Below, piece after piece: positions 10,133 to 61,300 of a stretch of 64,000 bases of DNA. The stretch's first letter is position 1, and each line of letters starts with the position of its first letter. This DNA is from a virus (taxonomy: Duplodnaviria > Caudoviricetes), in IMG/VR virus record IMGVR_UViG_3300037400_004242; one strand, 5' to 3'. The notes beneath the pieces were generated by a model. That model was not told where the DNA came from. It did not search any database and was given only the letters and a program-made list of their open reading frames with translations. Position numbers and translations under genes: made by a program.

Positions 10133-10146
10133 AGGAAGGGAAAATT

Positions 10147-12350: not shown

Positions 12351-12369
12351 AAGTTAGGATGGAGTATAA

Positions 12370-36963: not shown

Positions 36964-37687
36964 ATATACTGCGCCAATATCGAATAAAGAAAATCCTGCT
37001 TTAAAAGTAACAAAGTTTGAACCAATGATAGGTTGGGACCCAAGTACACGAATTGTTAATAAAGTAGATTTAAATGCGATTGACCAAGCAATTACAAGAT
37101 TGGAGAAAATTAAGTCTCATGTACAGAATTGTGATTGCTTTGATGTTGTTACTTGTCAAACAATTTCTTGTCAGGAATGGACAAAGGGAACAGGAAACTG
37201 TAATTGGCAAAAATGTCAATCTGCAAAAGAATGTATAGATTATATTGAATTTGGTACATATGCAGGAACAGATATGGATAAGCCTATTTCTGCACCAGGC
37301 AAGTGGACACCAACAACTGCAAAAGGTGGTACAAGTCCAAAACCTGAGTATGAAATTAGTAAAACTCCAACAGGTTCTTCTACTCCTTTTCGTAGAAAAG
37401 CATATACATGTCAGGAAATGTCTTGCCAATTTATAACTTGTCAAACAATTATTTGTCAAAGTGGTTTACTTTGTCAGACTTGCCAATCTTGTGAAAGATG
37501 TCAAGTTTGTGAAAGTTGTGAATCTGAATGTTTATGTCAAACTTGTCAGATATGTCAAGATAAAACAATTCCACATAATGACTGTCAAAAGAAATATTGT
37601 CAAGATTGTCAGACGTGTCAAAATTTGATTTGTGAAAATGTAAAGTGCCAAGCGTATTTTACGGATGGTAAAGATTTACCAAATTAA
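36953..37687 (+). CDS. Cys-rich C(Q/E)-repeat protein, putative radical SAM substrate
   Basis: About 27 Cys, most followed by Gln or Glu (CQTCQSCERCQVCESC); overlaps the stop of the upstream SPASM gene. Confidence 0.7.
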   Translation: MSIEYTAPISNKENPALKVTKFEPMIGWDPSTRIVNKVDLNAIDQAITRLEKIKSHVQNCDCFDVVTCQTISCQEWTKGTGNCNWQKCQSAKECIDYIEFGTYAGTDMDKPISAPGKWTPTTAKGGTSPKPEYEISKTPTGSSTPFRRKAYTCQEMSCQFITCQTIICQSGLLCQTCQSCERCQVCESCESECLCQTCQICQDKTIPHNDCQKKYCQDCQTCQNLICENVKCQAYFTDGKDLPN

Positions 37688-43329: not shown

Positions 43330-44637
43330 TTGAAACTTAGTTCAAATACAAAGAAGAAAACTATTTCATTTTACTCATATCATTTAAATCATGAGAAATA
43401 TGAACAGATTGAAAATTTAGCAAAACAAATTCAAGCATATCAAAATTTCATTTCTGAGATTTACTACAACACTTATTTTCAGAAACAAAAGATTTCTTGT
43501 GGTAAATTCATCACAGAAATGAAAATATATCGTGATAAGGAATTTTCCTCTTCATTTTTTCAACAGATATGTAAACAAGTATATGAAAAATATGAAAAGA
43601 AAAAACCTCCAAAACAGCAAGTGGTTTTCAAGAAATTATCCTTTGTTGGTATCAATCTAATGACAAAACCTTTTATTGAAGAAAGCAACAACAAATATAC
43701 AAACGGAATTATCAATTTTAATATACCTAAACAAGGAGTAATTTGTATTCCATTTAGATATTCAAAAAAGTATCATGGTGATTTGTCAGATATTACTTAT
43801 TCCATGACAGGTGCAAACAAATCTCAATTTCAAAAACTGTATACTTGTACATTGTTAGGTAAAGATAAACTAAAAATTACTATTGTCGAGGATGATAACA
43901 GAACATATACTACATCAATCAATCACATCGAAGGTATAGATGTAAATGTAAAACATAACCTTTTACAATGTTCTGATGGATTTTCTGTAGATTATGATAG
44001 AAAATTTGTTACTAAAATTATTAAACAAAGAAAAAAGTATGATAGAATTGTATCTACCAAAATGAAAAGAAACATTGACCATACAATGACTGAAAAACAA
44101 TATCATTTAAGTAAGAAAAATTCACGAAGAAGTATTTCTATGGTGGAACAATGTTTGGTAAAATTATTTAAGCATTGTAATAAAAATGGTATTGACCATT
44201 TAGTTTTTGAAGATTTAGGTAAGTTTACAGGTAGACTAAAAATTACCAACAAAGAATTTGATGTTAACTATAAACGACTAATGTACGCAGTTAAACTTGT
44301 AGATATTAAAAACATTGCAGAACGAATTGGAAAGAAATATGGAATCACAATATCTTTAACCAATCCTGAATATACAAGTCAAGAATGCAGTTGTTGTCAT
44401 CATATTTCTAAAAAGAATAGGCAAACGCAAGAATTGTTTAAATGTGAAAATTGTGGATTTGAATTAAATGCAGACTTAAATGCATCCATCAATATAAAAA
44501 ACAGGATTCTCTCAAACGTTTTGAGAGAATCCTGTCATCAGGAAATTGAACCAAATAAATTCATTCCAATTTACAAGAACTACGAAGAATTTAAAACAGC
44601 ATACATAGAATTAATTAAACAAAATACCGTATCTTGA
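43330..44637 (+). CDS. tnpB: TnpB RNA-guided endonuclease (IS200/IS605 or IS607 type), no adjacent transposase
   Basis: RuvC-I GIDVN, RuvC-II VFEDL, Zn finger TSQECSCC..FKCENCG, RuvC-III NADLNASINI. Confidence 0.9.
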   Translation: MKLSSNTKKKTISFYSYHLNHEKYEQIENLAKQIQAYQNFISEIYYNTYFQKQKISCGKFITEMKIYRDKEFSSSFFQQICKQVYEKYEKKKPPKQQVVFKKLSFVGINLMTKPFIEESNNKYTNGIINFNIPKQGVICIPFRYSKKYHGDLSDITYSMTGANKSQFQKLYTCTLLGKDKLKITIVEDDNRTYTTSINHIEGIDVNVKHNLLQCSDGFSVDYDRKFVTKIIKQRKKYDRIVSTKMKRNIDHTMTEKQYHLSKKNSRRSISMVEQCLVKLFKHCNKNGIDHLVFEDLGKFTGRLKITNKEFDVNYKRLMYAVKLVDIKNIAERIGKKYGITISLTNPEYTSQECSCCHHISKKNRQTQELFKCENCGFELNADLNASINIKNRILSNVLRESCHQEIEPNKFIPIYKNYEEFKTAYIELIKQNTVS

Positions 44638-45934: not shown

Positions 45935-48643
45935 ATGTTAAATAAAGATATAACATTTTCATTAGATAGTTACGATAAGAAAAAATTCAAGCATGAAGTA
46001 TATGACCACAAGGATGTTTTCTATAGTAGAGAATATATTTATAATTTTAAATTTACAGTAAATATAGATAAAAATGAAATGCCAATTAATCATTTAATTA
46101 TTTATCGTAATGGTGAACCATATAACAATTGTAAGATTATACAAGTTGGGAATAAATCTTATGAGGTTAAAGATGATGTATGGATTCGTTATGGAAACAC
46201 ATGTTATGGTGTAGATGTCGTTCTTGAAGGTGGAAAAACATATCATAATTATTTCTATTTGAAAATTTTACAATCATATCAGCCAAATGATATTCGTTTT
46301 ATAAGTTTTGCAACGTATGGATTACATGAAAATTATTCTATGTTGGATGTAATTGCAAACATTCAGACAAAATATCAAATTGATAGAGTTTTATTATATG
46401 AACATATTTGTCCATTGACAGAGATAGATGAAAAAAGTCGTATATCTAAAATAAGTGAAATGAATGAAAGATATGATTCCAAAGAAATTAAATGGAATTA
46501 TTTGGGAAAAATGGATTTAATAAATCATCAATATCGTTTTCGTTATATGTTGTTTGATACGTCATTAACTGAGAATCGTACAGTATTATATAAGGCTGTA
46601 GTCGTAACAACAAATGAAGTTCGTAGAAGTGCAATTATGTCTACCATTATTAAACCTAATACAATGTCTGTTAATATATTTACATATATGAATACAGAAA
46701 CAAAAGAAAGATACGATATATATGGTGGATGTGTAGGACGTATTGATGCAAAAATTGATGAATACGACAATCCTGAATATAATGGCAAGATTTTTCAACT
46801 TTTAATAGATAAAAGAGACGATGAACAAAATTATTTAAAGTTGCTTGTCGGCGATGATTATAAATTTGAAGCAGATAATTATCATGTTGAATATAAAAGA
46901 AAGAAATTTAATCGTGTACAAACAAATCGTGACCCTAATATTTTTGAAATTTATGGTGATGGATTGGCTACAAAAGTTATTAATGAGGAAAGAGATTTAT
47001 ATCGTAGAGATAATTGTAGATTTTTAGTAACTTTATATTGCGGTGAAGATACTTTTGTTTCATTTAAAATTACTCCATTAAATGATAATAATTTGGCTGT
47101 TAACACGAATAAGACAGAAAATAATATTGTAAAATATTCTTATAATGGTGAATCCAAGATTATGGATAAACAATATTTGGATAAGACTGTAGATGTAAAT
47201 GCAATTCAAGGATATTATACATATAATAGAAAAACAGAAAATCTAATTTTTACAAATATTGATACAAAGGAACAACATATTACAATTATTCCTGATAAGC
47301 CAAAAGAATTATTGTTTCAGGAATTTGATTACATTACATATAACGATAAATATTTTTTCTTTGTCAACTTAGATAATAAAGGAATCCATATTACACGTTA
47401 TGATGGCGTTAATATTGATAAAATTGAATATTTTACAGAGATTATTAAGAGTTCATTAGATTGGATAAAGTCTCAGCAAATATTAAGTTTTGATAAAAAT
47501 AATAATTTAAATTTGAAATTTATATCTTCTAATGGCAGTAATTTTTTAAAGAAAATTGTTGTAGAAAATAATGATTTATCAGTTATTGATTATAGTGATA
47601 TGTTAGTAAATGTATTTAATGATATTCGTAAGCAGATGTTAAATTATGTTGATAATTTAAATTCTGTGACCGTTGGAAAAGTCGAATATATTATTAAAGC
47701 ATCAAATGTTTATGATACATTAGAGCATAAATTTGAGGATATGGGATATACGGATTTTAATTTGAAATTTACGACGCAATATTTTACATATCAAATCAAA
47801 TTCCCAATAGATGTTAAATTTTTAAACAAGACAACAAATGTTTATGTTCGTTTTCAAACGTCTATGACTGTTACTTGTAGAGAAGATGTTATTTTTTATG
47901 AGACGAATTATAGCTTAGGAAATCCAAGATTCGATATTGATATTGATAGTATTAATTTAACATATCATTATACAGATAATGGGAAAAATTTAATTCCTCA
48001 AGTTGGGTATGAAAAATTAAATCAAAAATATTTCTTGAAATTTAGTCAACCTGTAAACACATATACAAAAGAAGATTATGCAATTTTTAAACGTTGCGAT
48101 ATATATAATGGTGGAGCTAGTCTTTATAAGATAAATCCCGAAGATGTATATGGAAATGGGACAAAAGAAAAAACATTTAGGTATTCAGATTTATGTAGAC
48201 TACGTATTTTTATGCTAAATTATAAAGAGTACATGATTATGCGTTTTATGGGTGATAAATGCATGATGACAGTTGTTAATGTAGAATTGAAAGAGCAAAT
48301 ATCACAAGAAACTATTACAACAGATATGTATTTCGATAGTTTGTTCTATTTTACGAAAGAACAGCTTGTATCATTAGATGATTTGTTAAGTAGTGCATAT
48401 TTATATGATTCTGTAAAACGAAAAATGTATATTTGTGCATTGAGTGATTGTTATGTATTAGCTGTTGGTGGAACATATGATACATCATTTCATAATATGG
48501 AGAAATCGACTAGTTTAAGTGGTATTCCGTTAGATAATATGAAAACATATTTGTCTGAATATGAATTTAGTTATCCATTAAACATTAAAAATCGTAATCA
48601 TTATTTAAATGATATAGTCTTTAGTGAAGGGGTATATTCATGA
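45935..48643 (+). CDS. Large beta-rich hypothetical protein, possibly structural
   Basis: 902 aa, Tyr/Asn-rich; GAAAGGAG RBS; coupled to rSAM locus II by ATGA overlap. Confidence 0.6.
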   Translation: MLNKDITFSLDSYDKKKFKHEVYDHKDVFYSREYIYNFKFTVNIDKNEMPINHLIIYRNGEPYNNCKIIQVGNKSYEVKDDVWIRYGNTCYGVDVVLEGGKTYHNYFYLKILQSYQPNDIRFISFATYGLHENYSMLDVIANIQTKYQIDRVLLYEHICPLTEIDEKSRISKISEMNERYDSKEIKWNYLGKMDLINHQYRFRYMLFDTSLTENRTVLYKAVVVTTNEVRRSAIMSTIIKPNTMSVNIFTYMNTETKERYDIYGGCVGRIDAKIDEYDNPEYNGKIFQLLIDKRDDEQNYLKLLVGDDYKFEADNYHVEYKRKKFNRVQTNRDPNIFEIYGDGLATKVINEERDLYRRDNCRFLVTLYCGEDTFVSFKITPLNDNNLAVNTNKTENNIVKYSYNGESKIMDKQYLDKTVDVNAIQGYYTYNRKTENLIFTNIDTKEQHITIIPDKPKELLFQEFDYITYNDKYFFFVNLDNKGIHITRYDGVNIDKIEYFTEIIKSSLDWIKSQQILSFDKNNNLNLKFISSNGSNFLKKIVVENNDLSVIDYSDMLVNVFNDIRKQMLNYVDNLNSVTVGKVEYIIKASNVYDTLEHKFEDMGYTDFNLKFTTQYFTYQIKFPIDVKFLNKTTNVYVRFQTSMTVTCREDVIFYETNYSLGNPRFDIDIDSINLTYHYTDNGKNLIPQVGYEKLNQKYFLKFSQPVNTYTKEDYAIFKRCDIYNGGASLYKINPEDVYGNGTKEKTFRYSDLCRLRIFMLNYKEYMIMRFMGDKCMMTVVNVELKEQISQETITTDMYFDSLFYFTKEQLVSLDDLLSSAYLYDSVKRKMYICALSDCYVLAVGGTYDTSFHNMEKSTSLSGIPLDNMKTYLSEYEFSYPLNIKNRNHYLNDIVFSEGVYS

Positions 48644-49692
48644 GCCATGTTTTACAAATTCAAATGACAAATCAATGTAATTTAAAATGTGAATATTGTT
48701 ATATTCATCAAAATAATGATAAAATGTCGTTTGAAATGTTAAAACAACAAATTAAATATGTAAAACAATTATCAAACAGAATAGACGATGATTTTGATGG
48801 AAAATATGATGTTACATATTTTGGTGGGGAGCCGTTAATTGAATATCAAAATATATTAAAATTTGATGAATATTTAAAACAATCATTAAATGTGCAACAT
48901 TCTTTCATTCAAACAAATGGTATTTTGTTAGATAAAGAAAAAATTAAACAATTAAGAAAAAAGAATATTTATATTGGAATTAGTTGTGATGGTTGTAATG
49001 ATAAGAATCATATATATATTGAAAAAATTTTTCAAAATAAATGGTTGCCTGTAGAAGCAAAAATGATGATAAATAAGTATAACGTTTTTGACTTAATGAA
49101 AAATGTTATATATTTTTATCGTCAAGCGATGAAAGTTAATTGTGGAAATTTATATATAGATGTTTCTTTTGTAAAGGACAATACATGGGATAAACATTCT
49201 ATTATAGAATTAAGACAACAATTAAAAAATTTGTATGATTTTATGATGATGAATTATAGAGATTATCATCGTTGGATTGATATTGGATTTGTTAATAGAA
49301 TTTGCGCAAATATTTTGAACAAAAAACGAAATTATATTTGTTTTGCAGGAGTGAATGGATATAATTTAACTCCGGATGGAATTATTTATCCATGTGCTAG
49401 ATTTTATACAAATCATAAATATCCATTGTTTGATTCAAATAGTTATAAATTTTATGATAAAAATATAGATATAATAAAGCATTGGAATCGGACAAAAAAT
49501 GATAAATGTATGAATTGTGTATTGAATCAATTTTGTAATCAAGGATGCTTATATTCTCAAATTAATAACAATGGAATTATTGATATGTATTGTGATGTAT
49601 TAAAGTCATGCTATCATATGGTAACAACTTTGTATAAAACGATGAAAAATGAATATAATGTGAATATATTAAAGAAAGTTGGTAAGATTTAA
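48640..49692 (+). CDS. Radical SAM/SPASM enzyme (locus II, A)
   Basis: CNLKCEYC, YFGGEP, QTNG; CFAG..TPDGIIYPC...CMNC..NQFCNQGC..C. Confidence 0.9.
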   Translation: MSHVLQIQMTNQCNLKCEYCYIHQNNDKMSFEMLKQQIKYVKQLSNRIDDDFDGKYDVTYFGGEPLIEYQNILKFDEYLKQSLNVQHSFIQTNGILLDKEKIKQLRKKNIYIGISCDGCNDKNHIYIEKIFQNKWLPVEAKMMINKYNVFDLMKNVIYFYRQAMKVNCGNLYIDVSFVKDNTWDKHSIIELRQQLKNLYDFMMMNYRDYHRWIDIGFVNRICANILNKKRNYICFAGVNGYNLTPDGIIYPCARFYTNHKYPLFDSNSYKFYDKNIDIIKHWNRTKNDKCMNCVLNQFCNQGCLYSQINNNGIIDMYCDVLKSCYHMVTTLYKTMKNEYNVNILKKVGKI

Positions 49693-50757
49693 ATGGAAAA
49701 ACCACCTATTAGTGTTTCAATAAATATGGGAAGTGCTTGTAACTTTCGCTGTAAATATTGTTTTGAGGTAAAGAATGGTGCAGTTAATGATTCTAAAAGA
49801 CTTCAACAAAAAGTGAAAGAACGAGTTATTGATGTTATTAAATTATTGACTGAAACAAATAAAGTTCGTATTGAATTTTGGGGTGGTGAGCCGACAGTAT
49901 ATTTTGATGACATTTATGAAATTATTGAAGCAACGAAAGCATATGAAGAAGTAACCTATTTTATGTATACAAATGGTTCTTTGGTTGAAAAATATAGTAA
50001 AGAATTGCTTCAAATAAAAAATGATGTTGGGCATCGTTTTCAAGTACAAGTTTCTTATGACTATCATGATTTAAAAAATAATCAACGCATTCAATTGAAT
50101 AAGACAGTTGAAGAAACTGAAAAAATGGTATTAGATGCGATTCATTTTTTTGATGATAATGATTTTTTCTTCGGAACAAAAACAACTTGTACAATGCATG
50201 ATTTAGAAGAGAATTTATTTCATCAATATATGAATTTTGAAAATTTAAATAAAACATTAAAACATAAAGTAAATTTTAATCCAACACCTGATACATTAGG
50301 TGTTGGAAATGTTAATTATAATAAAATAGAAAAACAATTTATTCAATTGTTAAAATATTTTGTTAAAAATAAAAAGTTTGGGAAAACAGGATTCATGTGG
50401 TTTGATATGCCATCTAATGCAGATTGTACAGGTGGAATACATTCGTTTCAAATAGATGTTGACGGCAGAGTTACATATTGCCATGGATGTTTATATAGTA
50501 AGAAAGATTTGTTTTACACTTCTGTATTTGATGATAATTTTCTTCATAAAGTAGATTATAATTATCTTGCAGTATATAGAAAATACAAGAAAAATAGTCA
50601 ATGTTCAGATTGCAATTCACAATTCTGTTTCAGATGTAACGCAATTAATAGTGATGGAAACATAGAAGATTGGGATAAATCAAATATTCCTGATGTTTGT
50701 AAATTATATAATAAAATTTCAGATTATATCCGCGCCTATTACAAAATAACTCATTAA
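49693..50757 (+). CDS. Radical SAM/SPASM enzyme (locus II, B)
   Basis: CNFRCKYC, FWGGEP, YTNG; CTGG..DVDGRVTYCHGC...CSDCNSQFCFRCNA..C. Confidence 0.9.
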   Translation: MEKPPISVSINMGSACNFRCKYCFEVKNGAVNDSKRLQQKVKERVIDVIKLLTETNKVRIEFWGGEPTVYFDDIYEIIEATKAYEEVTYFMYTNGSLVEKYSKELLQIKNDVGHRFQVQVSYDYHDLKNNQRIQLNKTVEETEKMVLDAIHFFDDNDFFFGTKTTCTMHDLEENLFHQYMNFENLNKTLKHKVNFNPTPDTLGVGNVNYNKIEKQFIQLLKYFVKNKKFGKTGFMWFDMPSNADCTGGIHSFQIDVDGRVTYCHGCLYSKKDLFYTSVFDDNFLHKVDYNYLAVYRKYKKNSQCSDCNSQFCFRCNAINSDGNIEDWDKSNIPDVCKLYNKISDYIRAYYKITH

Positions 50758-50819
50758 TTTTACGATGTATTTTATTTTTCTAATAGAATAGGTATTGAAA
50801 AATTTGGAGTTGATAATAT

Positions 50820-52397
50820 ATGGCGATATGTACGGACACAAAATATGTAGAGGGATTTTATCAAATTGTAGAACCTCCACAATTTTTAAAAGACATGTTT
50901 CCAATTTGTAGACCTTTTGGTGACCCCGGTGATGACAAAAGTTATGAATTCGGGAGTAGTTATTGGAGCGGGTTCGATTCTACTTCTCGTGATGAAGCAT
51001 CAAGTCGTGGATTAAGTAATCGTAAAGGTCGTTTAAAAGATTCTTTTAGTGTTACAGATAAAGTTACGAATAAAGATTGGAACTGTGCAATTGTAAAATT
51101 GAAACAAGAATTTGCTATTCGTTGCGGTTTTAAGCATAATTGGATTCCATTTGTAGAACAAACGGGAGATTTTGGATTATCCAATCATTTAGGATATTTC
51201 CGTGATGGTATTAAAGGCGGAAGTGATGGTGATAGTGACCCAACGCAAGGCGAAAAAACGGATATTGTATATCGTAGAGATATGCAAAAAATATACTTAG
51301 ATATTATTCGTTTGCTAGACTATGAAGTTCCAATGTATTCCGTAGAAGATGGAAGCAAAAATCCTCGTTTCCCAGAGTTTAGAGGTATTTTTTCTAATGA
51401 TTATGGTAAAGTTGGGGACTACAATTCTATTTTAAAAGAAATTGTTGATATTGATGATGCTGATAAATTTTTAAAACAAGGGAATAATGTGTTTTTACCT
51501 CCTGATAATAAAGCATCTGAGAAAAAATGGAAATATTTTCATTTAAATGATAATGTTATTGGCTATCCTGGTGAACCAGCTTCTTCTTGTGCAAAATATG
51601 AAGGAAAATTAGAGAGTTTTGGTGATAACTATCCACCTGGTGGTTCAATTAACATTGACCAGCTAAACGATTGGGAAAGTCGTTATACATTAGGTACTGA
51701 TGCATATGATTTTAAAAAAATGACCAAGAAACGTATTTTGCAATTCATTGGTGCGTCTCAACCTTGGTATCGTAAGTCCGATTCATTATTGGATTGGGAC
51801 GATGGTATTTTTATTGATTATTGGCAACCAAAAAGAGATACTGATGATTTCGCATACGCTCAAGAAATAGTTCCTAATACATATTATCCATATGGAAATA
51901 AGGATTATACAGAAGATGGTGGAGCAGGTGGAAAAGAACCAAAGCCATCAGCATTATATAAAGCTGTACAAGAATTTAGAAAGAAATTTATAAATCCTGC
52001 AAAAGAAACTACAGATAATGATTTATTAGTTTCTGCCAAAATTTCAAAAACAGCTACAGTTGATAGAGATTTATATGGTAATCCAATTACACAAACTGTA
52101 GAAGAAGATGCATCATTTTCAGTAGCATATGTTATGAGACATGCTTATACAGAGTTTCAAACGGTAGATAAATATGGCGATGATGGAAAACTAATTAGTA
52201 GAATGACAATCGGCGGTGATAAAATTATCGTTGATGCTAACTCTGTCGCAAATGTGTTTATGAAAACAATAAATAAAATTTCAGATATTTGCGTTTGTAA
52301 CTGCAATTATTGTTCTTGCTTTGGTAATGAAGTTACATGCTTATGCTATGTTGTTAAGGTAACAGGTTGGTGCTATTCATACATGTATGTATATTAA
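50820..52397 (+). CDS. Protein with Cys-rich C-terminus, putative structural protein and rSAM substrate
   Basis: Ends ICVCNCNYCSCFGNEVTCLCYVVKVTGWCYSYMYVY (8 Cys); follows the SPASM pair; Gly/Asp-rich body. Confidence 0.6.
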   Translation: MAICTDTKYVEGFYQIVEPPQFLKDMFPICRPFGDPGDDKSYEFGSSYWSGFDSTSRDEASSRGLSNRKGRLKDSFSVTDKVTNKDWNCAIVKLKQEFAIRCGFKHNWIPFVEQTGDFGLSNHLGYFRDGIKGGSDGDSDPTQGEKTDIVYRRDMQKIYLDIIRLLDYEVPMYSVEDGSKNPRFPEFRGIFSNDYGKVGDYNSILKEIVDIDDADKFLKQGNNVFLPPDNKASEKKWKYFHLNDNVIGYPGEPASSCAKYEGKLESFGDNYPPGGSINIDQLNDWESRYTLGTDAYDFKKMTKKRILQFIGASQPWYRKSDSLLDWDDGIFIDYWQPKRDTDDFAYAQEIVPNTYYPYGNKDYTEDGGAGGKEPKPSALYKAVQEFRKKFINPAKETTDNDLLVSAKISKTATVDRDLYGNPITQTVEEDASFSVAYVMRHAYTEFQTVDKYGDDGKLISRMTIGGDKIIVDANSVANVFMKTINKISDICVCNCNYCSCFGNEVTCLCYVVKVTGWCYSYMYVY

Positions 52398-52410
52398 TAC
52401 AGAAAGGAAT

Positions 52411-52670
52411 TTCAGTAACCCACGAATAAATTCGTGGGATTGTGGTAGAAATATCACAATCCTTTGCTGAATAGCCTAAGTCTTAACTGACTACGTTGTT
52501 ATCGTTATCACACCCTAGTGCGTATGCTTTAACGCTAGGCTCTGTAAAAGTTCTAAGAGGTAGGAACAGTCAACCAGACGTAGACCGATTACGGCAAGCG
52601 ATTATAACATTGGCTAAGAGTAACCAACTCAAGAATAAAGTTATTTATAACTTTAGGAAGGAGGTAGACT
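52411..52670 (+). ncRNA. IscB omegaRNA (HEARO-like)
   Basis: TTCAGTAA pairs with TTGCTGAA; CCCACGAA/TTCGTGGG hairpin; characteristic AGCCTAAGTCTTAACTGACTACGTT and AACATTGGC segments directly upstream of iscB. Confidence 0.8.
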
Positions 52671-52674
52671 TGTT

Positions 52675-53013
52675 ATGTTAGTCTACGTATTAAATAAAAA
52701 TGAAAAACCTTTAATGCCTTGCAGTCCCAGAAAAGCTAGGATACTTCTTAAAGAAGGTAAGGCAAAAGTAATTAGACGAGAACCTTTTACTATACAATTA
52801 CTCTATGGTTCTAGTGGATACAAACAGAAAGTAAATCTCGGCGTAGATGCTGGCAGTAAACATATAGGTTTATCTGCGACTACCGAGAAGAAAGAACTTT
52901 TCGCCAGCGAAGTTAAATTAAGAACTGACATCGTAGATTTATTGTCTACGAGACTTCAGTATAGAAGAAGTAGAAGAAATAGAACTACTATAAGAAGGGG
53001 AGACTTAATATGA
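52675..53013 (+). pseudogene. iscB: Truncated IscB (PLMP domain, RuvC-I, start of bridge helix)
   Basis: MLVYVLNK..KPLMPC.P.KARILLK.GKA, LGVDAGSKHIG, RRSRRNR, then a stop; HNH and RuvC-II/III are absent. Confidence 0.85.
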
Positions 53014-53324
53014 CAATGTATGCAATTATTATAACTTTAGACGCTGATACATTATCTAAAGTATACACAGGAAATAGTATAGCAAGTGCTTATACAGATA
53101 TTGAGGAAATACTAAGAAGTTATGGATTTTCTCATAAACAAGGAAGTGTATATTTTGGAGATGAGGGAATAGACGCTGTTCATACAGTTATTGCAGTACA
53201 GAAACTATCAAAAAAATATGATTGGTTTGTACCAAGCGTACAAGATGTGCGAATGATTAGAATAGAGGAAGATAGTGATTTGATGGTGGCGATTAGATTT
53301 GCATATTTGGAATCCAATAAGTGA
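53010..53324 (+). CDS. vapD: VapD-family (Cas2-like fold) protein
   Basis: MYAI..LD...AY.DI...L..YGF...QGSVYFG...WF..SV.DVRMIRIEE.SDL. Confidence 0.85.
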   Translation: MTMYAIIITLDADTLSKVYTGNSIASAYTDIEEILRSYGFSHKQGSVYFGDEGIDAVHTVIAVQKLSKKYDWFVPSVQDVRMIRIEEDSDLMVAIRFAYLESNK

Positions 53325-53448
53325 ACAATATATGTATTCTAAGCCTGTAAAAGTATTAGTAAAAAAATATAAAATGGTTAATAGAAAGGAGGAGCGTTGT
53401 TTCCTCCCATGGTTAAAACCATGGGAGGAAACAACGCAAAATATATGA

Positions 53449-53715
53449 ATGGAGAATAAAACTTTAACAGAAGAAGAAAAAAAAGATTTTATGGAAAAAA
53501 TGGCGAATATAATTAATTATATGGAAGCCACAAGAAATATTATTTATCCTATGGATAAGATATTGTATCAAACAATTAATAATATTTTATCAATGTATAT
53601 GATTAGTTTAGGAAGAAAAGTTGGTATGGAATATGAAGAACTAGAAAAAAAGTATTCCAAAGATGAATCTGAAGTTGATGATATTATTGATAAAATTAGT
53701 AAGGAGACAGAATAA
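53449..53715 (+). CDS. Hypothetical protein (continuation of the rSAM locus II operon)
   Basis: Its apparent original RBS (AGAAAGGA, 52401) lies on the other side of the IscB element. Confidence 0.55.
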   Translation: MENKTLTEEEKKDFMEKMANIINYMEATRNIIYPMDKILYQTINNILSMYMISLGRKVGMEYEELEKKYSKDESEVDDIIDKISKETE

Positions 53716-54353
53716 TGGGAAAACAAATGTTATTTTTTTGCGGAATAATAACAATTAATAATGTTAATTTTTTGGTAAATCCTTTTACAAAAATTGAGGG
53801 TGAACCTGTTCTTCTGAGCAGAGATGCATATGTTCAGCTAACTGCTGAAGCATATGATTTCGTCACAAATGTTTTAGATTTATCACATAGAGAACCACAA
53901 TGCAAAGTTTATATTGAATGTTCTCCAACAGAAAAAGAAATTTTTGACAGAGACGATTTGAAAATTAATGAAGAGTTAAATAATGAGTCTCCTGAAGATA
54001 AACTTGATGCATATAAAGAAAAATGTATTCGTTTGATGAATGAAATGATTTCAAATCAACTTATGATTTCTAATTTTGAATTATATCATTTCTTTAAATT
54101 GAATCATTATCTTGAATCTAAAGGTTTCTTTATTACAGATGAAAATCGTGAAGAAAAGTATTTGGAAGTTATTAATAGTGGTGATGCAGAAGCACTTGAG
54201 AAACTTTCTGAATATTTGGATTCATTAGATGAATTTAATGCGATTGATGATATTTATATGCGTTATAAGGAATTTAAAGACAAGGTTAAGGTTGCTAAGA
54301 ATGAACAAGAAATTAAAGATGCATACATCGCCATGTCAAAAGCAACATTTTAA
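53715..54353 (+). CDS. Hypothetical acidic helical protein (possible fibre assembly chaperone)
   Basis: Translationally coupled ORF; function guessed from position only. Confidence 0.45.
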   Translation: MGKQMLFFCGIITINNVNFLVNPFTKIEGEPVLLSRDAYVQLTAEAYDFVTNVLDLSHREPQCKVYIECSPTEKEIFDRDDLKINEELNNESPEDKLDAYKEKCIRLMNEMISNQLMISNFELYHFFKLNHYLESKGFFITDENREEKYLEVINSGDAEALEKLSEYLDSLDEFNAIDDIYMRYKEFKDKVKVAKNEQEIKDAYIAMSKATF

Positions 54354-55149
54354 TATTGTTTATATGACTAATGAATCATATTTGTTTCAAACATATGTTT
54401 CTATTAGTTCATTGAAGATGAATAAACATCATAACATCAGTTATGATGTTTATTTGTTATGTATTGAAATGCAAGATATTGGAGATATAAAAAAATTAAA
54501 TGATGAGGATTTTTGTATTCATTCAATTTATATTGAACGTAATATTTATAGATATGATGCTAATGCAGGTGTTGTATATTATAAAATGATTTTACACGAA
54601 TTATTGGATGTGGATACAGTATTTCATATTGATTCAGATACAGTTGTTATTGATGATGTTTCAAGTATTTTTGATTATAATTTAACCGATTATTTTTGTG
54701 GTGGTGTAAAAGATAAAATTAAAGGATTGAAATACTTTAATGCAGGAAATGTGTTGTTAAATTTAAAAAAAATACGAGAAACATTATATGATAATGAATA
54801 TACAATGTATGATTATTTTTGGCAATTAGATAAAGAATTAAGAGATAAAAAAGGATTCCTTTGGGAACAAGATGTTTTTAATAAGGCTTTTGAAAATAAG
54901 ATTTTATATATTAATTATGGCTATAATTTTTTGGTGAATACTTATAGCCAATATAAGTTTAATGATTTAAGTAGAATTTATGGAGAAAAAGTAGATTATA
55001 AAAAAATTAAAATATTACATTTTGCAAGTCATCCAAAACCGTGGATAAAAACAAATTTATTTGGTGAAATTTGGAAAATGTATGCAGAAAATAAAGTAAA
55101 TAAAGAATTAGAACAGAAAATATTGAGGGTGGCGTGTCGTGAGTATTGA
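54229..55149 (+). CDS. Glycosyltransferase family 8 (start probably 54319)
   Basis: HIDSDTVV (DxD), YFNAGNVLLNL, EQDVFN, ILHFASHPKPW. Confidence 0.9.
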   Translation: MNLMRLMIFICVIRNLKTRLRLLRMNKKLKMHTSPCQKQHFNIVYMTNESYLFQTYVSISSLKMNKHHNISYDVYLLCIEMQDIGDIKKLNDEDFCIHSIYIERNIYRYDANAGVVYYKMILHELLDVDTVFHIDSDTVVIDDVSSIFDYNLTDYFCGGVKDKIKGLKYFNAGNVLLNLKKIRETLYDNEYTMYDYFWQLDKELRDKKGFLWEQDVFNKAFENKILYINYGYNFLVNTYSQYKFNDLSRIYGEKVDYKKIKILHFASHPKPWIKTNLFGEIWKMYAENKVNKELEQKILRVACREY

Positions 55150-56293
55150 TAGAAAACAAGCATTATTAATGCAATTTATGTTAGGTTCAAATTTAAAAGT
55201 AAAAAAAAGAGATAAAGATAAAATATTAGTTACTTGTAATATAGCTACCCGTCAAGGACACCAATATTTATGGGGAGCAGAAAAATATTGTATGAAAATT
55301 TGTCATCAGTTGGCAAAAAAATATGAAGTACATTTGTTTCAACAAGCAGAAAATTTTTTAAATTGTAATGATATTATTGTGCATCCACATATTTATAATT
55401 TTTTTTCTCGTTCAAAATTATTAGAAGTTGCTTTTAAGGCTTCTATGGTACAACCAAGATGCATTTTATGTAATGCAGGAACAGGTTCACAAGCGTTATT
55501 TTGGACAATTGTAGCAAAAATTATTGATGTTCCAATTATTATGTTTTTACATAATGAACCAACTTTTATAAAAGATACAATTTCTCCTGAATGGGGTATG
55601 TATTATGTTCGTGGTCAAACAATTATGAAAGATAAAGATATGCTGTATGATTTCGTCTTAGATTATTGTGATGAATTAGCATTTTTATTACCGCAATATA
55701 TAGATAGTAAATATAAAGATAAAACTTATGTGTATCTTAATTGTATTGATATTCCTAACAATGTAGATGTTGAATCAGATAGAAAAAATTTGTTGTATGT
55801 TGGTAGAATTAATACCGATGTTAAACGTACACAAATATTGTTAGATTGGGTTAAAAATACAGAATATGCTTGTAAAGTATGTGGCTATAATTATCAAGAA
55901 GATGGGTATCTTGATATGAATCAATATCAAAAATATAAAAATATAAATTTTTTAGGATACCATAAAAATATGGATAACATTTATCGTGAATCTAACGTAT
56001 TAGTTATTCCATCTTTATATGAAGGACTTCCAACAGTTGCATTAGAAGCATTATCTTATGGTATACCAATTGTTGGATTTAAAGAATGTAAATCTATGAA
56101 TGATATTATTCAGGATGGATATAATGGATGGCTAGTAGATAATAACTTTTCAGATGTTATGGAAAAAGTAATGTCTATAAAAGATATGAGACAAATTCGT
56201 AAGAATTGCTTAAATGAATCGAAAAAATATGATATAAATAATATTATGAAAACAATTTTTAAATCAATAGAGGATGTTAAATGTGAAGATTAA
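55139..56293 (+). CDS. Glycosyltransferase family 4 (GT-B)
   Basis: GAEK, LYVGRI, VIPSLYEGLPTVALEALSYGIP. Confidence 0.9.
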   Translation: MSIDRKQALLMQFMLGSNLKVKKRDKDKILVTCNIATRQGHQYLWGAEKYCMKICHQLAKKYEVHLFQQAENFLNCNDIIVHPHIYNFFSRSKLLEVAFKASMVQPRCILCNAGTGSQALFWTIVAKIIDVPIIMFLHNEPTFIKDTISPEWGMYYVRGQTIMKDKDMLYDFVLDYCDELAFLLPQYIDSKYKDKTYVYLNCIDIPNNVDVESDRKNLLYVGRINTDVKRTQILLDWVKNTEYACKVCGYNYQEDGYLDMNQYQKYKNINFLGYHKNMDNIYRESNVLVIPSLYEGLPTVALEALSYGIPIVGFKECKSMNDIIQDGYNGWLVDNNFSDVMEKVMSIKDMRQIRKNCLNESKKYDINNIMKTIFKSIEDVKCED

Positions 56294-57206
56294 TTTAATT
56301 TACTATTTATATGAAGTGAATGGTGCATTTACTTCATTTGAAGATACATTTTATAATTTAAGCAAGTTTACAAATCATAATGTTAATTTCTTTATTTTAT
56401 ATGAAGATAAATATATGTTAGCACAATTTAAAAAATATCTTCCAAAAGGCTCAGGAATTTGCTTATTAGAATTACCAAAAACTCCAGATAAAGGAACGAA
56501 TTTATATAAACGTGTTGCAGTTAGGGAAGTATATCATACAATGGTATATAATATAAAAGGTGACATTAATATTATTAGTTCTGAAGTTATTCGATTACAA
56601 AAAGCAAATAGAATTAAACAGAGTGCAAGTCAAGAAATGTTGTTATATCCTGCATTTATATATAAAGAACAAGGATTAGATAAAACTTTTTACAATGATG
56701 AACAAGAATATATTAAAAATAATGATGTACTTGTAATATGTAATAAATTTAATACAAAGTATGTTAATAATTCATTTGTTTGGTATATGCAATTTTCAAA
56801 AGAAAGAATTGAACAATTAAAAAAACTTGTTTCTAATGAAAATGATGTTTTATGTGCTGAAGAATATTATAAAAATAAAATGAATTGTAAAAATATTGAA
56901 CCGTTTTCATATAAGAAATATGAATATTATAGATATGATAAAAAAAATGAAACAAATTGTTATACAGATGATGGAGCAAGATATTATGAAAATATTGGAA
57001 AATTAATGTTTGAATTTGTTTTACTGGGAAAAGAATCATCATATTCTCCAAGAAATAAACAATTTGATGATGGATTGACAGAATTCATGAATTATTTGGG
57101 ATACGATGATAATCAATTATATTGGTGGAATCATAAGGATATTTCTTATTTAGAAAAAAGATTGTTTATGAACAAAGAAAATAAATTGTTATCTTTATTT
57201 AAATAA
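56274..57206 (+). CDS. Divergent GT-B-like protein (paralog of 27949-29328)
   Basis: NGAFTSFEDTFYNL; ENIGKLMFE (EX7E); DDGLTEF; located within the glycosyltransferase cluster. Confidence 0.45.
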   Translation: MLNVKINLIYYLYEVNGAFTSFEDTFYNLSKFTNHNVNFFILYEDKYMLAQFKKYLPKGSGICLLELPKTPDKGTNLYKRVAVREVYHTMVYNIKGDINIISSEVIRLQKANRIKQSASQEMLLYPAFIYKEQGLDKTFYNDEQEYIKNNDVLVICNKFNTKYVNNSFVWYMQFSKERIEQLKKLVSNENDVLCAEEYYKNKMNCKNIEPFSYKKYEYYRYDKKNETNCYTDDGARYYENIGKLMFEFVLLGKESSYSPRNKQFDDGLTEFMNYLGYDDNQLYWWNHKDISYLEKRLFMNKENKLLSLFK

Positions 57207-57208
57207 AA

Positions 57209-58816
57209 TTGGGAGAAGGTTCATCAATGAAAATTCTTGGAATACAATGTTATCAAGATTATAATGTAACATATTTTGATACAGTTACAAAAGATTTGAA
57301 ATATACAGAACTTGAAAAATTATTGAAGAAAAAACATTTTTCTTTTCATTCTGATAAAATAGATTATATGCCTGAAATTGATAGAATTTACGATGATAAT
57401 TTAAGAAATAATTTATATAAATGTCAGCGTATTATTCATGAAGAATTAGGTGTAAATAGATTTGATGTTGTTTGTTGGAATTACAAAACTTTTAAAGATG
57501 GATATTTAAAACAAGAATCTTATGATTTTGTAAAAATGTTAGAGCGTTGTGATGTTTTGAAATTTCATCATCAAGAGAATCATGTATTACCTACGATTTT
57601 TGAATATGATTTAAAAGATGCATTATGTTTTTCAATTGATGGAAAAGGTGACGGGAACCATGCTTTTTATCATTGGAAAGATAATAAATTAAATTTGTTG
57701 TTTCAGGAAAAAGCATTTTCTTATGGAATGTTTTATGAAGTCTTAGCATGTTATTTCTTAGATAAGAAGAATCAGTATGAACAAGGGTTAGAAGGAAAAT
57801 ATATGGCTTATGCAGGTTTGTCTAATAAATTCCTTGAACTTGAAAATATTGATGCTTTTATGAATGAAGTAAAAAAGACAAATTGGAATATATGGGAAGA
57901 TAAGATTGAAGTAGAAAAATTTATTTATAATTATTTAGATAAAATGTCAGAAAAATATGATAAATATGATTTGGCATATACTATGCAAAAATTATGGATA
58001 AATAATGTTATGGCTGATATAGCAAAGTATCGTCATGAAAGTGAAAATTTTGTAATTTCAGGTGGATGTGCATTAAATTGTATGTTAAATTATGAGATTA
58101 TAAAAACTGGATGGTTTAAAAATGTGTATTATACACCTATTGTTTCAGATGTTGGACAATCATATGGAGCAGTATTAAATTATTTATTGCATTATTCTCC
58201 TGAAAATTTAAAATTTGTAGATTCTGATGATTTTTCTATTACAGAAGGTATTCGAGATAAAAAATATTTTGATTCTATTTCTTCTAATTTTCATACATAT
58301 CAAATAGAAGAAATTTCATCAATATTAGAAAACGATGGAATTGTTGGAATATGTCGTGGAAATATAGAAATGGGACCTCGTGCATTAGGGAATCGTAGTA
58401 TATTGGCTTCACCTTTTCATAAAGAAATGCATGATAAATTAAATAAAATAAAAGGAAGAGAATGGTATCGTCCGTATGGAGTTATTGTTCCAAGAGAATA
58501 TTTATCACGTTATTTCGATATTGATGTTGATGTAAAATATATGAATATGTTAGCATATCCAAAAGACAAAGATGTACTTTTGGGAGCGCAACATACAGAT
58601 GGAACAATTCGTATTCAAACTGTTTCAGATGAAGATAATCGTTGGTTACATGATTTATTATTAACTTTTGGACAAAAAACAGGAGTTCCAATTTTAATTA
58701 ATACATCATTTAATGATGGTGGTATGCCAATTTTTAATTATATGAAAGACATGTATCGTATGTATAATGAAAAATTAAATGCTCTCGTTTATGAGAATAA
58801 GATGGTGTCAAAATGA
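57209..58816 (+). CDS. O-carbamoyltransferase (NodU/CmcH/TobZ family); start probably 57227
   Basis: HHQENH, DGKGD, EGKYMAYAG, SGGCALNC, EMGPRALGNRSILA, KGREWYRPY, HTDGTIRIQTV, LINTSFN. Confidence 0.92.
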   Translation: MGEGSSMKILGIQCYQDYNVTYFDTVTKDLKYTELEKLLKKKHFSFHSDKIDYMPEIDRIYDDNLRNNLYKCQRIIHEELGVNRFDVVCWNYKTFKDGYLKQESYDFVKMLERCDVLKFHHQENHVLPTIFEYDLKDALCFSIDGKGDGNHAFYHWKDNKLNLLFQEKAFSYGMFYEVLACYFLDKKNQYEQGLEGKYMAYAGLSNKFLELENIDAFMNEVKKTNWNIWEDKIEVEKFIYNYLDKMSEKYDKYDLAYTMQKLWINNVMADIAKYRHESENFVISGGCALNCMLNYEIIKTGWFKNVYYTPIVSDVGQSYGAVLNYLLHYSPENLKFVDSDDFSITEGIRDKKYFDSISSNFHTYQIEEISSILENDGIVGICRGNIEMGPRALGNRSILASPFHKEMHDKLNKIKGREWYRPYGVIVPREYLSRYFDIDVDVKYMNMLAYPKDKDVLLGAQHTDGTIRIQTVSDEDNRWLHDLLLTFGQKTGVPILINTSFNDGGMPIFNYMKDMYRMYNEKLNALVYENKMVSK

Positions 58817-59568
58817 AACATATACCGTTGATTGAATATCATTTGGTGAATCATTGCAATTTAAATTGTAAAGGCTGTGCTCATTTTGCACCATTAGCAA
58901 AGCCTTGGTTTGCAAATATAAATAAATTTGAAAAAGATTTAAAACAGTTGTCTTCTTTAGTGATTATTGATAAATTAACTTTATTCGGTGGAGAACCATT
59001 ATTGCATGATAACATTAATGATTTTTTAATAATTGCTAGAAAAATTCTTCCGAATACAGATATTAGTATTTTAACAAATGGGATTTTATTGTTGAAAAAA
59101 TTAGGTTCGCTTGCAAAAGTAATGAAAGAAAATAATATATATATGGATATTACTTGTTATCCTATTCCTGTTAAATATGAATTAGGGCTAAAAATGTTGA
59201 AAACGCTTAAAGTTCCATATCGTATATATAATGATATGGAACGTGTAAAAACATTAAGACATCATTTTCTTTCTCATAAAAAGGAAAAAAATAAATGGGA
59301 ATGTTTGATGATAAATTCAAATTCAGTTCAATTAAGAAATGGGAAATTATATATATGTCCTTTACAAGCATATATTGATATTTTTAATGAGTATTTTCAT
59401 GAGAATTTTAAAGTAGACAATAATGATATTTTAGATATTTATCATTGTACGGATGATGATATATTAAATATGTATCATAGGAAAAATGATTTTTGTGAAT
59501 ATTGTAGAGAACCAATAGAAGGGAATAAATATTCTACATCTAAAAAGGAGAAATCAGAATGGATGTAA
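58813..59568 (+). CDS. Short radical SAM enzyme (HFAP group, copy 2)
   Basis: CNLNCKGCAHFAPLAKPW, GGEPLLH, TNG, LYICP, FCEYC. Confidence 0.88.
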   Translation: MKHIPLIEYHLVNHCNLNCKGCAHFAPLAKPWFANINKFEKDLKQLSSLVIIDKLTLFGGEPLLHDNINDFLIIARKILPNTDISILTNGILLLKKLGSLAKVMKENNIYMDITCYPIPVKYELGLKMLKTLKVPYRIYNDMERVKTLRHHFLSHKKEKNKWECLMINSNSVQLRNGKLYICPLQAYIDIFNEYFHENFKVDNNDILDIYHCTDDDILNMYHRKNDFCEYCREPIEGNKYSTSKKEKSEWM

Positions 59569-60380
59569 AATATTGTTTAAAAACACAAATTGTAGATGAA
59601 TGTAATTTAAATTGTAAAGGTTGTGACCATTTTGCTCCATTAGCAAAACCTTGGCATCAATCTTTACCTGATTTTGTTGATATGATAAAAACGATTCGTA
59701 ATACAGTTGGAGATAACATAAAAGAAATTGAATTATATGGTGGGGAGCCATTATTACATCAACAATTATATGAAATGATTTTAGTTCTAAAAGTTTTATT
59801 TGGAAATAAAATTGTAATTTCAATTGAAACAAATGGAATTTTATTGGACAAATTTTTACAACATCATAAAGATTTAATAGATGATAACAAAATAGAATTT
59901 AAAATTACAGAATATAAAGCAACAAAAGGAATTATTGATAAATTAAAGAAAAAATATCTAAATAATGATATATATCAAGCGGCTATGTTAAAAAATGAAA
60001 TTAAACTAGCAGATGATATAACTTATAAAGAAAATATGTTTAATGTGAACATAAATAAAACAAAAGAAACAGACACAAATAAAATTTTAAATATATATAA
60101 AAATTGTTATTGCAAGAGTGAAGAAGAAGATTCTTTATGTTTGAGAAATTGGGTATTGTCTCCTTGTCCTATGACAATGTGTTTGAATATTTTTGATAAT
60201 TTTTTCAATGAACAATATGATTCTGAAAAAAATCATATAATAGTTACAAATAATTTATCTAAAAAAGATTTGGATAAAATGGCACATTATCCATGTGATT
60301 TTTGCAAAAGGTGTGGAAATGTTGTTTATGGAATACCATATGGCATTTCTAAAAAGGAAAGGGTAGAATGGCAGATATAA
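59559..60380 (+). CDS. Short radical SAM enzyme (HFAP group, copy 3)
   Basis: CNLNCKGCDHFAPLAKPW, GGEPLLH, ETNG, PCP, FCKRC. Confidence 0.88.
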   Translation: MDVKYCLKTQIVDECNLNCKGCDHFAPLAKPWHQSLPDFVDMIKTIRNTVGDNIKEIELYGGEPLLHQQLYEMILVLKVLFGNKIVISIETNGILLDKFLQHHKDLIDDNKIEFKITEYKATKGIIDKLKKKYLNNDIYQAAMLKNEIKLADDITYKENMFNVNINKTKETDTNKILNIYKNCYCKSEEEDSLCLRNWVLSPCPMTMCLNIFDNFFNEQYDSEKNHIIVTNNLSKKDLDKMAHYPCDFCKRCGNVVYGIPYGISKKERVEWQI

Positions 60381-61300
60381 AATTTTATATTATTATTCCA
60401 ACATATAATCGTTTCGAGAAAATAAAAAATGCAATACAAAGTGTATTGCGACAAACATATGATAATTATCATATCATTATAGTGGATGACCATTCAAATG
60501 AAGATAATTATATGAATTTAAAAAAGTATATTGATAATAATGATAAAATATCATATTATTATTTAACTAAAAATATGGGACATTGTTATGCTAGAAATTT
60601 TGCCTTGAAACAAATTATAAAATTAGATAGTTGGATAAAATATTTAGATGATGATGATGTAATATTACCAAATTGTTTACAAGATATATATGAATATATT
60701 AAAGAAAATAAAAATTTAAATGTTATCACGACAGATTATAATATTTTAGATGAGCATAATAATATTATTAAATGTATGCACCCAAATTATAATGTAGAAA
60801 GCGTATTTAACGGAAATCTAGATACATGTTGTATTTGTCATAAATATTCATTATATCAACAACTGGGTGGATGGGATACGAAATTGTTTCGTATGGCAGA
60901 TGATGATTTTTTCTTTAATTATATTTCTAATGGAAAATATGGATATTTAAACAAAATAACATCTGTATTTTATAGAACTAATGATAAGTCAAGAGTAACT
61001 AAGCAAGTATCTAATTTAAAATTTGTAAAATATATAGCTGATAAATATGCATATTTTAATAAAAAATGTTTGATTAAAACAGAAGAAAAATACATAGATA
61101 GTATTAATAATGCTGAATATAATATTGAATCGTTTATGAAATTTGATATTAATAAAAAATTAACAAATGATTATGATTTTATTATTATGATTAATGATAA
61201 TGATGTTATTAATGAAATTTTTCAACATTATTGGAAAACAAAGGAAAAACATTTTAAAATTAAAAATTCATTATTTATAGAAAATAAACTAAAAAAATGA
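60368..61300 (+). CDS. Glycosyltransferase family 2 (paralog of 9149-10132)
   Basis: IIIPTYNR, VDDHS, ARN, YLDDDD, shared DTCCI motif. Confidence 0.9.
   Translation: MADIKFYIIIPTYNRFEKIKNAIQSVLRQTYDNYHIIIVDDHSNEDNYMNLKKYIDNNDKISYYYLTKNMGHCYARNFALKQIIKLDSWIKYLDDDDVILPNCLQDIYEYIKENKNLNVITTDYNILDEHNNIIKCMHPNYNVESVFNGNLDTCCICHKYSLYQQLGGWDTKLFRMADDDFFFNYISNGKYGYLNKITSVFYRTNDKSRVTKQVSNLKFVKYIADKYAYFNKKCLIKTEEKYIDSINNAEYNIESFMKFDINKKLTNDYDFIIMINDNDVINEIFQHYWKTKEKHFKIKNSLFIENKLKK

Follow-up and report, generated by a model that had tools for sequence, protein, structure and literature searches.

Why should a phage encode two radical S-adenosylmethionine (SAM) enzymes directly ahead of a large protein that ends in a run of cysteines? 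This arrangement lies on the plus strand, at positions 45935-54353, of the viral record IMGVR_UViG_3300037400_004242, of which a 64,000-nt stretch, here called the window, was analysed. A first-pass annotation had described at this place a 902-amino acid (aa) open reading frame (ORF), two SPASM enzymes, a 525-aa Cys-tailed protein and two small ORFs, and all six ORFs are present as described. We refer to them as locus II, to set them apart from another enzyme-bearing place in the window, locus I. Our reading is that locus II is a phage protein-maturation cassette whose enzymes install Cys-Asn thioethers, perhaps together with an aromatic link, in a fibre-type protein of the virion. As a whole we give this a little less than an even chance, and its parts deserve different degrees of trust: the sequence comparisons make it very probable that the 525-aa protein is the substrate of the enzymes, its product is probably a virion component, and thioethers are, by analogy, rather likely to be among the products. 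The cassette itself appears to be a real, conserved and undescribed variant of protein-directed radical-SAM maturation, with a chemistry that we infer.

The window is an AT-rich segment of a phage G-related jumbo phage; the major capsid protein encoded here (14412-15251) shares 79.6% identity with the counterpart in Bacillus phage G. Relatives of this phage are contigs of 150-320 kb; a database search with the locus II genes gave no match in any cultured phage G-group record.

An invariant cysteine tail and two distinct enzymes

The presumed substrate (50820-52397) consists of a variable body with three conserved helical segments, a helix at residues 473-489 and an eight-Cys tail. Eight of its 13 cysteines fall within residues 491-518, the presumed modified core (codons at 52290-52373), which holds one CxCNCNY heptad, a CxC, and then CxC and WC. 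In an alignment of 13 homologues (255-525 aa), Cys 491, 493, 495, 498, 500, 507, 509 and 518 are invariant, as are Asn494, Asn496 and Tyr497; in a further copy, from L005, Phe replaces Tyr497. Mean identity among the homologues is 97% for residues 491-500 and 69% for 501-521, compared with 10-48% for segments of the body. Between pairs of homologues, the 31 codons of the tail differ by 7-12 synonymous changes while the cysteines stay invariant, so the tail is kept by selection and not by chance. The helix that the first-pass annotation had noticed ahead of the Cys run was modelled by AlphaFold2 directly before it, with a per-residue confidence score (pLDDT) of about 77-84. An FPICxP(Y/F)G motif near the N-terminus (window 50820-50920) is kept even in the 255-aa relatives and is possibly an attachment or recognition site.

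The two enzymes, E1 (48640-49692, 350 aa, PF04055 E 7.9e-15) and E2 (49693-50757, 354 aa, E 4.9e-13), both score above the Pfam radical SAM cut-off and share 28% identity over 110 residues. Their CxxxCxxC motifs begin at residues 13 and 16, respectively (Cys 13/17/20 in E1, 16/20/23 in E2), and hence neither has a fused recognition element (RRE) of the kind used for peptides that are made by ribosomes and modified after translation (RiPPs). No PqqD-type match was found in the locus II proteins, and the model of the 212-aa protein returned no RRE fold. Seven SPASM cysteines are invariant in each enzyme: 234, 252, 290, 293, 299, 303 and 318 of E1 in 26 clade members, and 245, 263, 304, 307, 312, 315 and 336 of E2 in 27 members, 26 of which also keep His264; the SPASM model PF13186 itself matched E2 weakly (E 0.038). 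In a FastTree phylogeny (SH-like support only), E1 groups with Campylobacter phage CP220 gp023 in the 29-member clade A (support 98) and E2 with CP220 gp136 in the 31-member clade B (support 96). The closest NCBIfam model of both enzymes is PapB and the closest solved structure CteB, at scores far below membership.

Six catalytic-proximity positions, taken from PMC10288494 and placed in E1 and E2 by motif landmarks, read Y-F-Q-S-A-R in E1 and F-W-Y-S-H-G in E2, and each profile is largely fixed in its own clade. The CteB profile is F-F-T-S-H-Q, of which E2 shares three residues (F, S and H). From these sequence profiles we infer that E1 and E2 run two different reactions, E2 being nearer to thioether formation. 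In the phage L015, which is otherwise 98-100% identical here, the E1 copy (L015:5821-6873) has 24 residue differences, which leave 93% identity and all fall in the stretch 7-291, suggesting a recent allele exchange.

Gene order and the wider cassette

The first-pass annotation had proposed dedicated pairing of enzymes and substrate, to be judged by gene order in related phages. The order 902-aa gene, E1, E2, Cys protein, 88-aa gene, 212-aa gene and glycosyltransferases is kept in seven relatives (L001, L002, L003, L005, L019, L020 and L023), with occasional extra genes inserted and with the 212-aa gene of L019 outside the check. In one lineage, E2 and the Cys protein are separated by one or two inserted DNA methyltransferase genes (L002:5080-6282, L003:8092-9294, L144:1186-3407).

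A further relative, L146, keeps the flanking genes, a homologue of the 902-aa protein (32% identical), the sugar genes and the small radical SAM genes, and the 902-aa homologue is followed directly by the sugar genes. Locus I, E1, E2, the Cys protein and both small genes are absent at their usual positions. This pattern indicates that enzymes and substrate are gained or lost together and that the 902-aa protein is independent of them. The 902-aa ORF (45935-48643) has homologues in close relatives only, gave no Pfam, PHROG, PDB, Atlas or cultured-phage match and has no assigned function. Its inclusion in the module, as first proposed, is not supported, since L146 has it without either locus, and it is probably a clade-specific neighbour outside the module.

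The pairing extends well beyond these relatives. A DNA search of viral sequences for CxC(D/N)CNYCxC returned 71 viral stretches. In 61 of these the motif fell inside an ORF of at least 100 aa, and duplicate removal left 42 distinct ones. Counted over the distinct motif loci with enough flank, which are not all phylogenetically independent, a same-strand enzyme of clade A, B or C lies no more than 5 kb upstream in 25 of 30, enzymes of both clades A and B are present in 15 of 21, and a 212-aa homologue follows the Cys protein in 17 of 27. The Cys proteins across these cassettes have a helix and then CxCxCxY heptads; of 257 heptads that fall outside the pattern searched for, 245 carry Asn, Asp, Gln or Glu at position 4 and 241 carry Tyr, His or Phe at position 7. 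Of these components, the window has the clade A and clade B enzymes, the helix-plus-heptad protein and the partner of 212 aa; a short clade C enzyme, as many cassettes have, was not found in the window. Residues 475-512 of the 525-aa protein match phrog_26958 weakly, and a weak match between the bodies and the local family persists when the Cys repeats are taken out (E 0.003 for the profile, E 1.2e-5 for the best member). Judged by these comparisons, locus II is a divergent form of a widespread phage CxCxCxY/radical-SAM cassette (phrog_26958, phrog_25260, phrog_1802). The survey of phages that the first-pass annotation had called for thus recovered the same enzyme clades and the motif in dozens of unrelated phages, and the dedicated pairing is supported by the order in seven relatives, the absence as a unit from the usual position in L146 and the travelling of the clades with the motif.

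Among cultured phages, clade A was found in Firehammerviruses only. In CP220, gp023 corresponds to E1, gp136 to E2, gp140, with seven heptads, to the Cys tail and gp015 to the 212-aa protein, the four genes lying in two separate places. This scatter is the one point in favour of a chance adjacency of unrelated accessory genes, which the co-occurrence counts (e.g., 25 of 30 loci), the synteny and the joint absence contradict to the point that, as the first-pass annotation had argued, we dismiss it. In Campylobacter phage CP21 (L148:6846-8016) the annotation splits the clade B enzyme into two ORFs, and likewise the adjacent RNA ligase, possibly owing to a sequencing error. In the tail module of Achromobacter phage JWF, gp028 (L012:7503-11024) has a Hint domain immediately preceded by a CxC run, and one radical SAM gene downstream; a metagenomic protein (L085:7132-9430) likewise has a CxC run and then a Hint domain, with one radical SAM gene downstream. 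From their sequences, these CxC-Hint proteins would be a second self-cleaving variant.

Links to the virion

Peptidase_S74 is a self-cleaving chaperone of trimeric fibres. The domain was found above cut-off directly after the heptads in seven tested relatives, all distant homologues. In addition, the published virion list of Campylobacter phage IBB_35 includes gene 3-9, the orthologue of gp140, at a weak 2.6% coverage (PMC3322345). The proposal of the first-pass annotation that the enzymes mature structural proteins therefore holds in part: the S74 domains in relatives and the weak IBB_35 virion mass spectrometry (MS) make a structural substrate probable; that the enzymes modify it is a proposal.

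A split form of the domain was also observed, in which the Cys protein ends with the first dozen S74 residues and the remainder is a separate downstream ORF; 16 Cys proteins have such a stub and 8 have the fused full domain. Split cases are L064:9640-10518 and L070:2636-3456 (both above cut-off) and L043:4685-7548, as well as L114, L060, L054, L073 and L074; in L043, one free chaperone gene is common to four paralogous Cys proteins.

In locus II, the slot in which distant modules have the free S74 chaperone gene is taken by the 88-aa acidic protein (53449-53715), which is conserved in the clade by gene order; no similarity was detected between this protein and either the small ORFs or the free S74 genes of those modules. 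The 212-aa conserved partner (53715-54353, phrog_25260) has a beta N-domain and a helical C-domain, and its AlphaFold2 model is confident (pLDDT 91.7). By template modelling (TM) score, the best Atlas shape match of this model is DUF4376, although weak (TM 0.41/0.56), and feature matches to Tfa/DUF4376 clusters (0.77-0.79) are at lead level. VIA-align and BFVD searches with the model gave generic helical matches only, and 33 family members had no Pfam match, including PF14301. DUF4376 proteins are fibre chaperones in Alteromonas phages (PMC10579305), and the model makes the 212-aa protein a candidate fibre-assembly chaperone.

A proposed mechanism and its alternatives

We propose that the 525-aa protein is made late in infection from its own promoter and is recognised by the enzymes without help from an RRE, probably via the helix before the tail or via the small partner proteins. 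At auxiliary cluster I (AuxI), the open iron would hold a tail cysteine, hydrogen would be abstracted from the beta carbon of Asn494 or Asn496, and Cys-Asn thioethers would be closed. Both steps have precedents: in the seven-Cys SPASM enzyme CrpC, three cysteines ligate AuxI and the open iron site can bind a substrate thiol (PMC13692751), and NxxcB forms its link between Cys and the Asn beta carbon, with Asp and Gln also tolerated (PMC9389541), so that the Asn/Asp/Gln/Glu of heptad position 4 matches the acceptors that NxxcB tolerates. E2 would be the likelier thioether former, and E1, with its different fixed active site, might act in another register or form a link through the conserved Tyr. 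The 212-aa protein may help to fold or attach the product, which would be a fibre- or appendage-type virion protein with its variable body toward host or environment and with the stapled tail as a redox-independent rigid end.

Several observations weigh against this proposal. The thioether chemistry is proposed from sequence and by analogy. The enzymes reach only 110 and 68 bits with the PapB model NF047865 (cut-off 340) and 67 bits with TIGR03974 (cut-off 425), and neither of their active-site profiles is identical to that of CteB. The tail has Cys-to-Asn spacings of i+1 and i+3 and an Asn-to-Cys spacing of i+4, not the CxxxD of PapB. Peptidase_S74 is lacking in the 525-aa protein and altogether in three related genomes, and the match of the body to the broad cassette family is weak, since against the profile value of E 0.003 the window protein alone reaches E 0.06. 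Structure prediction of 50820-52397, suggested earlier as a way to recognise a trimeric fibre, yielded the helix at 473-489 but otherwise a low-confidence monomer (pLDDT 51.7), for which Foldseek found nothing at E <= 0.001 in BFVD and PDB. The virion list of IBB_35 also holds an ExsB homologue, and carry-over is thus possible. Finally, locus II sits among sugar-modifying genes, outside the tail operon.

The alternative that survives best, though we consider it unlikely, leaves the tail of a virion protein as the substrate and changes the main chemistry, either to cross-links from Tyr, His or Phe to the Asn beta carbon (dynobactin or cyclophane type) or to Cys oxidation (formylglycine type). 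The aromatic residue at heptad position 7 in 241 of the 257 non-pattern repeats would suit such links, as would the RRE-less architecture of about 350 aa; moreover, E1 matches DynA over residues 7-329 (E 6.5e-20) and also structures of anaerobic sulfatase-maturating enzymes (anSME), and it has Ala-Arg after the second AuxI Cys where E2 has His-Gly, i.e., it lacks the His. On the other hand, the seven SPASM cysteines suggest an open substrate-binding iron, PapB and CteB score above DynA and anSME for these enzymes, and the Cys ladder would be left without explanation. An anSME-type activity was rejected as the leading explanation in particular, as the Asp of anSME after the second AuxI Cys is missing in both enzymes; nor does the substrate match the anSME-type motif CxPxR/CxAxR, the CxP(Y/F) at residue 30 having no Arg.

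The iron sites of T4 gp37, formed by His-x-His in a trimeric fibre, illustrate another alternative, in which the Cys tail would form the core of a trimeric fibre, through metal, Fe-S or disulfides, and stay covalently unchanged while the enzymes act, e.g., on a glycan of the adjacent cluster or help to load a cluster. We regard this as a minor possibility. The CxC spacing fits metal binding, and in Ralstonia phage RP12 (L011:4428-11153) a 125-aa helix-repeat protein ending in HxH instead of CxC is flanked by virion genes on one side and three radical SAM genes on the other. A glycosyltransferase cluster follows locus II, and a homologue of one of its genes (56274-57206) is also found 3' of the cassette in five distant loci, hinting, by sequence, at coupled glycosylation. 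Yet a metal core would explain neither the strict Asn/Asp/Gln/Glu and aromatic positions of the heptad nor why peptide-maturase-type enzymes stay within 5 kb of the motif, and L146 has the sugar genes and small radical SAM genes but not E1, E2 or the Cys protein.

It is improbable, in our view, that the locus follows RiPP logic, with a cross-linked tail that is released or used in the infected cell (as a toxin, in anti-defence or in metal scavenging) and not in the virion. A near-invariant C-terminal core behind a long variable region would fit such logic, and the S74 and Hint domains of relatives could act as self-cleaving modules; their cleavage, however, removes what follows the Cys run and leaves the run on the body. 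Further, the conservation pattern is the reverse of leader and core, the substrate is 255-525 aa long with a variable N-part, and no protease, peptidase or exporter is present in the locus or among its neighbours. The IBB_35 virion detection and the related CxC tail on the JWF tail-module gene beside a radical SAM gene also speak for a virion protein.

Returning to thioether maturation, a tentative extension would be that in many phages a virion fibre is completed by two RRE-less radical-SAM enzymes that work together and install cross-links of two kinds, Cys-Asn thioethers and an aromatic one. Such a RiPP-style assembly step would also explain part of the radical-SAM excess in Campylobacter group II phages; we rate this as doubtful at present.

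Comparison with known systems

The closest parallel is CrpC/CrpA of Methanococcus voltae (TIGR04463), in which a seven-Cys SPASM enzyme likewise adjoins a large protein with C-terminal Cys motifs and ranthionine links were demonstrated by MS (PMC13692751). That system is archaeal, with a single RRE-containing enzyme and 17-residue repeats, and its description does not mention phages, whereas locus II has two RRE-less clades, the CxCxCxY heptad and a fibre-type context; TIGR04463 was not among the best 25 models shown for E1 or E2. The SPASM enzyme QhpD (TIGR03906) sets Cys-Asp/Glu thioethers in QhpC, a structural protein subunit (as summarised in PMC13692751); it depends on an RRE and a leader, and E1 and E2 reach 67 and 36 bits against its cut-off of 453. 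CteB, PapB and NxxcB, among which are the best PDB and NCBIfam relatives, resemble locus II in their Asn/Asp/Gln acceptors and in the three of six CteB residues kept by E2. They differ in that they act on short precursors with leader, protease and exporter, whereas the locus II enzymes lack an RRE and fall far below the cut-offs. Assignment as ranthipeptide synthases fails on these family cut-offs, and no RRE is fused to the enzymes or was seen in the locus, where the 88-aa protein was not folded.

Fibres with S74 and DUF4376 chaperones resemble the cassette in the S74 domains of substrate relatives and in the DUF4376-like shape of the 212-aa partner; the 525-aa protein itself has no S74 and the DUF4376 match is weak. 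To our knowledge, no enzymatic maturation has been described for such fibres.

The Campylobacter group II phages (CP220, CPt10, IBB_35) carry 11-12 radical SAM genes, unexplained since 2010 (PMC2853527), which have been read as metabolic or DNA-protecting (PMC2853527, PMC3322345). There the genes are dispersed, and these papers draw no link to the Cys-repeat protein. The cassette, which recurs in unrelated phage groups as well as in these cultured phages, names a candidate substrate, gp140 or gene 3-9. A jumbo-phage review (PMC7824862) does not mention radical SAM, and we found no paper on radical-SAM maturation of virion proteins in phages in the literature searched, which excluded most subscription journals. 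Radical-SAM cross-linking of full-size proteins is known in few cases (QhpC, CrpA), and none was found for a virus particle. Being a minimal version, with one heptad, two enzymes and no S74, locus II would be convenient for assigning the chemistry of each enzyme.

Locus I

Locus I (34760-37687, plus strand) comprises two paralogous SPASM enzymes, which belong to neither clade A nor clade B, and a 244-aa protein of Cys-Gln repeats. Its enzymes are a sister pair, 42% identical over the full length, and show 26-34% local identity to E1 and E2. By direct genome searches, locus I is present in three relatives, one of which (G003) has a single enzyme, and the pair is a recent, lineage-specific duplication. 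The locus I substrate has 27-31 Cys, set in Cys-Gln rhythms along most of the protein; within the window, a 212-aa homologue occurs at locus II alone, none standing beside locus I. A helix before the Cys run is common to both loci, but the profile match is slight (3.9 bits). We thus take loci I and II, from their sequences, as different and independent systems. The first-pass annotation had called locus II a second, independent instance of the same architecture; independence, enzymes unlike the locus I pair and the helix hold, while the architectures are alike on the surface only. In the tree, the locus I enzymes fall near those of JWF and RP12, a placing on long branches that we do not rely on.

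Promoter, insertion and neighbouring genes

The candidate late-promoter motif noted in the first-pass annotation, TATT-N7-TAGA (50773-50787, plus strand), is present 47 nt upstream of the 525-aa start. The window has 19 matches of this type against 8.2 +/- 3.2 expected, and TAT-N8-TAG(A/T) occurs within 70 nt of the orthologous start in six of seven distinct lineages (chance about 0.075 each), the seventh having a TAGT variant about 72 nt upstream; of the control upstream regions, 2 of 26 had the motif. Scans for sigma-70 promoters and terminators were at chance level.

Between the 525-aa gene and the two small ORFs lies a recent IS200/605-type insertion of 1,032 bp (52411-53442, plus strand), outside the module and passed over in the first-pass annotation. 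It contains a HEARO RNA (52411-52628; Rfam RF02033, 102 bits), an IscB N-terminal fragment (52675-53013; PF14239) and a VapD-like gene (53010-53324; NF041506 E 1e-14, below cut-off), which stands in place of the nuclease part of IscB. The near-identical phage L015 lacks the IscB/VapD insertion, the insertion point being between the ribosome binding site (RBS) and the ATG of the 88-aa gene; this separation from its RBS may have lowered expression of the 88-aa gene in this strain. Upstream of locus II, a TnpB-like transposon gene is located at 43330-44637, and a related gene adjoins the locus in L019. Sugar-modification clusters at 54229-61300 and 6700-13440 contain GT8, GT4 and GT2 glycosyltransferase genes, a carbamoyltransferase gene and short radical SAM genes. 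In L146, a gene at 220-1113 with 24% identity to the major capsid protein comes immediately 3' of another capsid-family gene.

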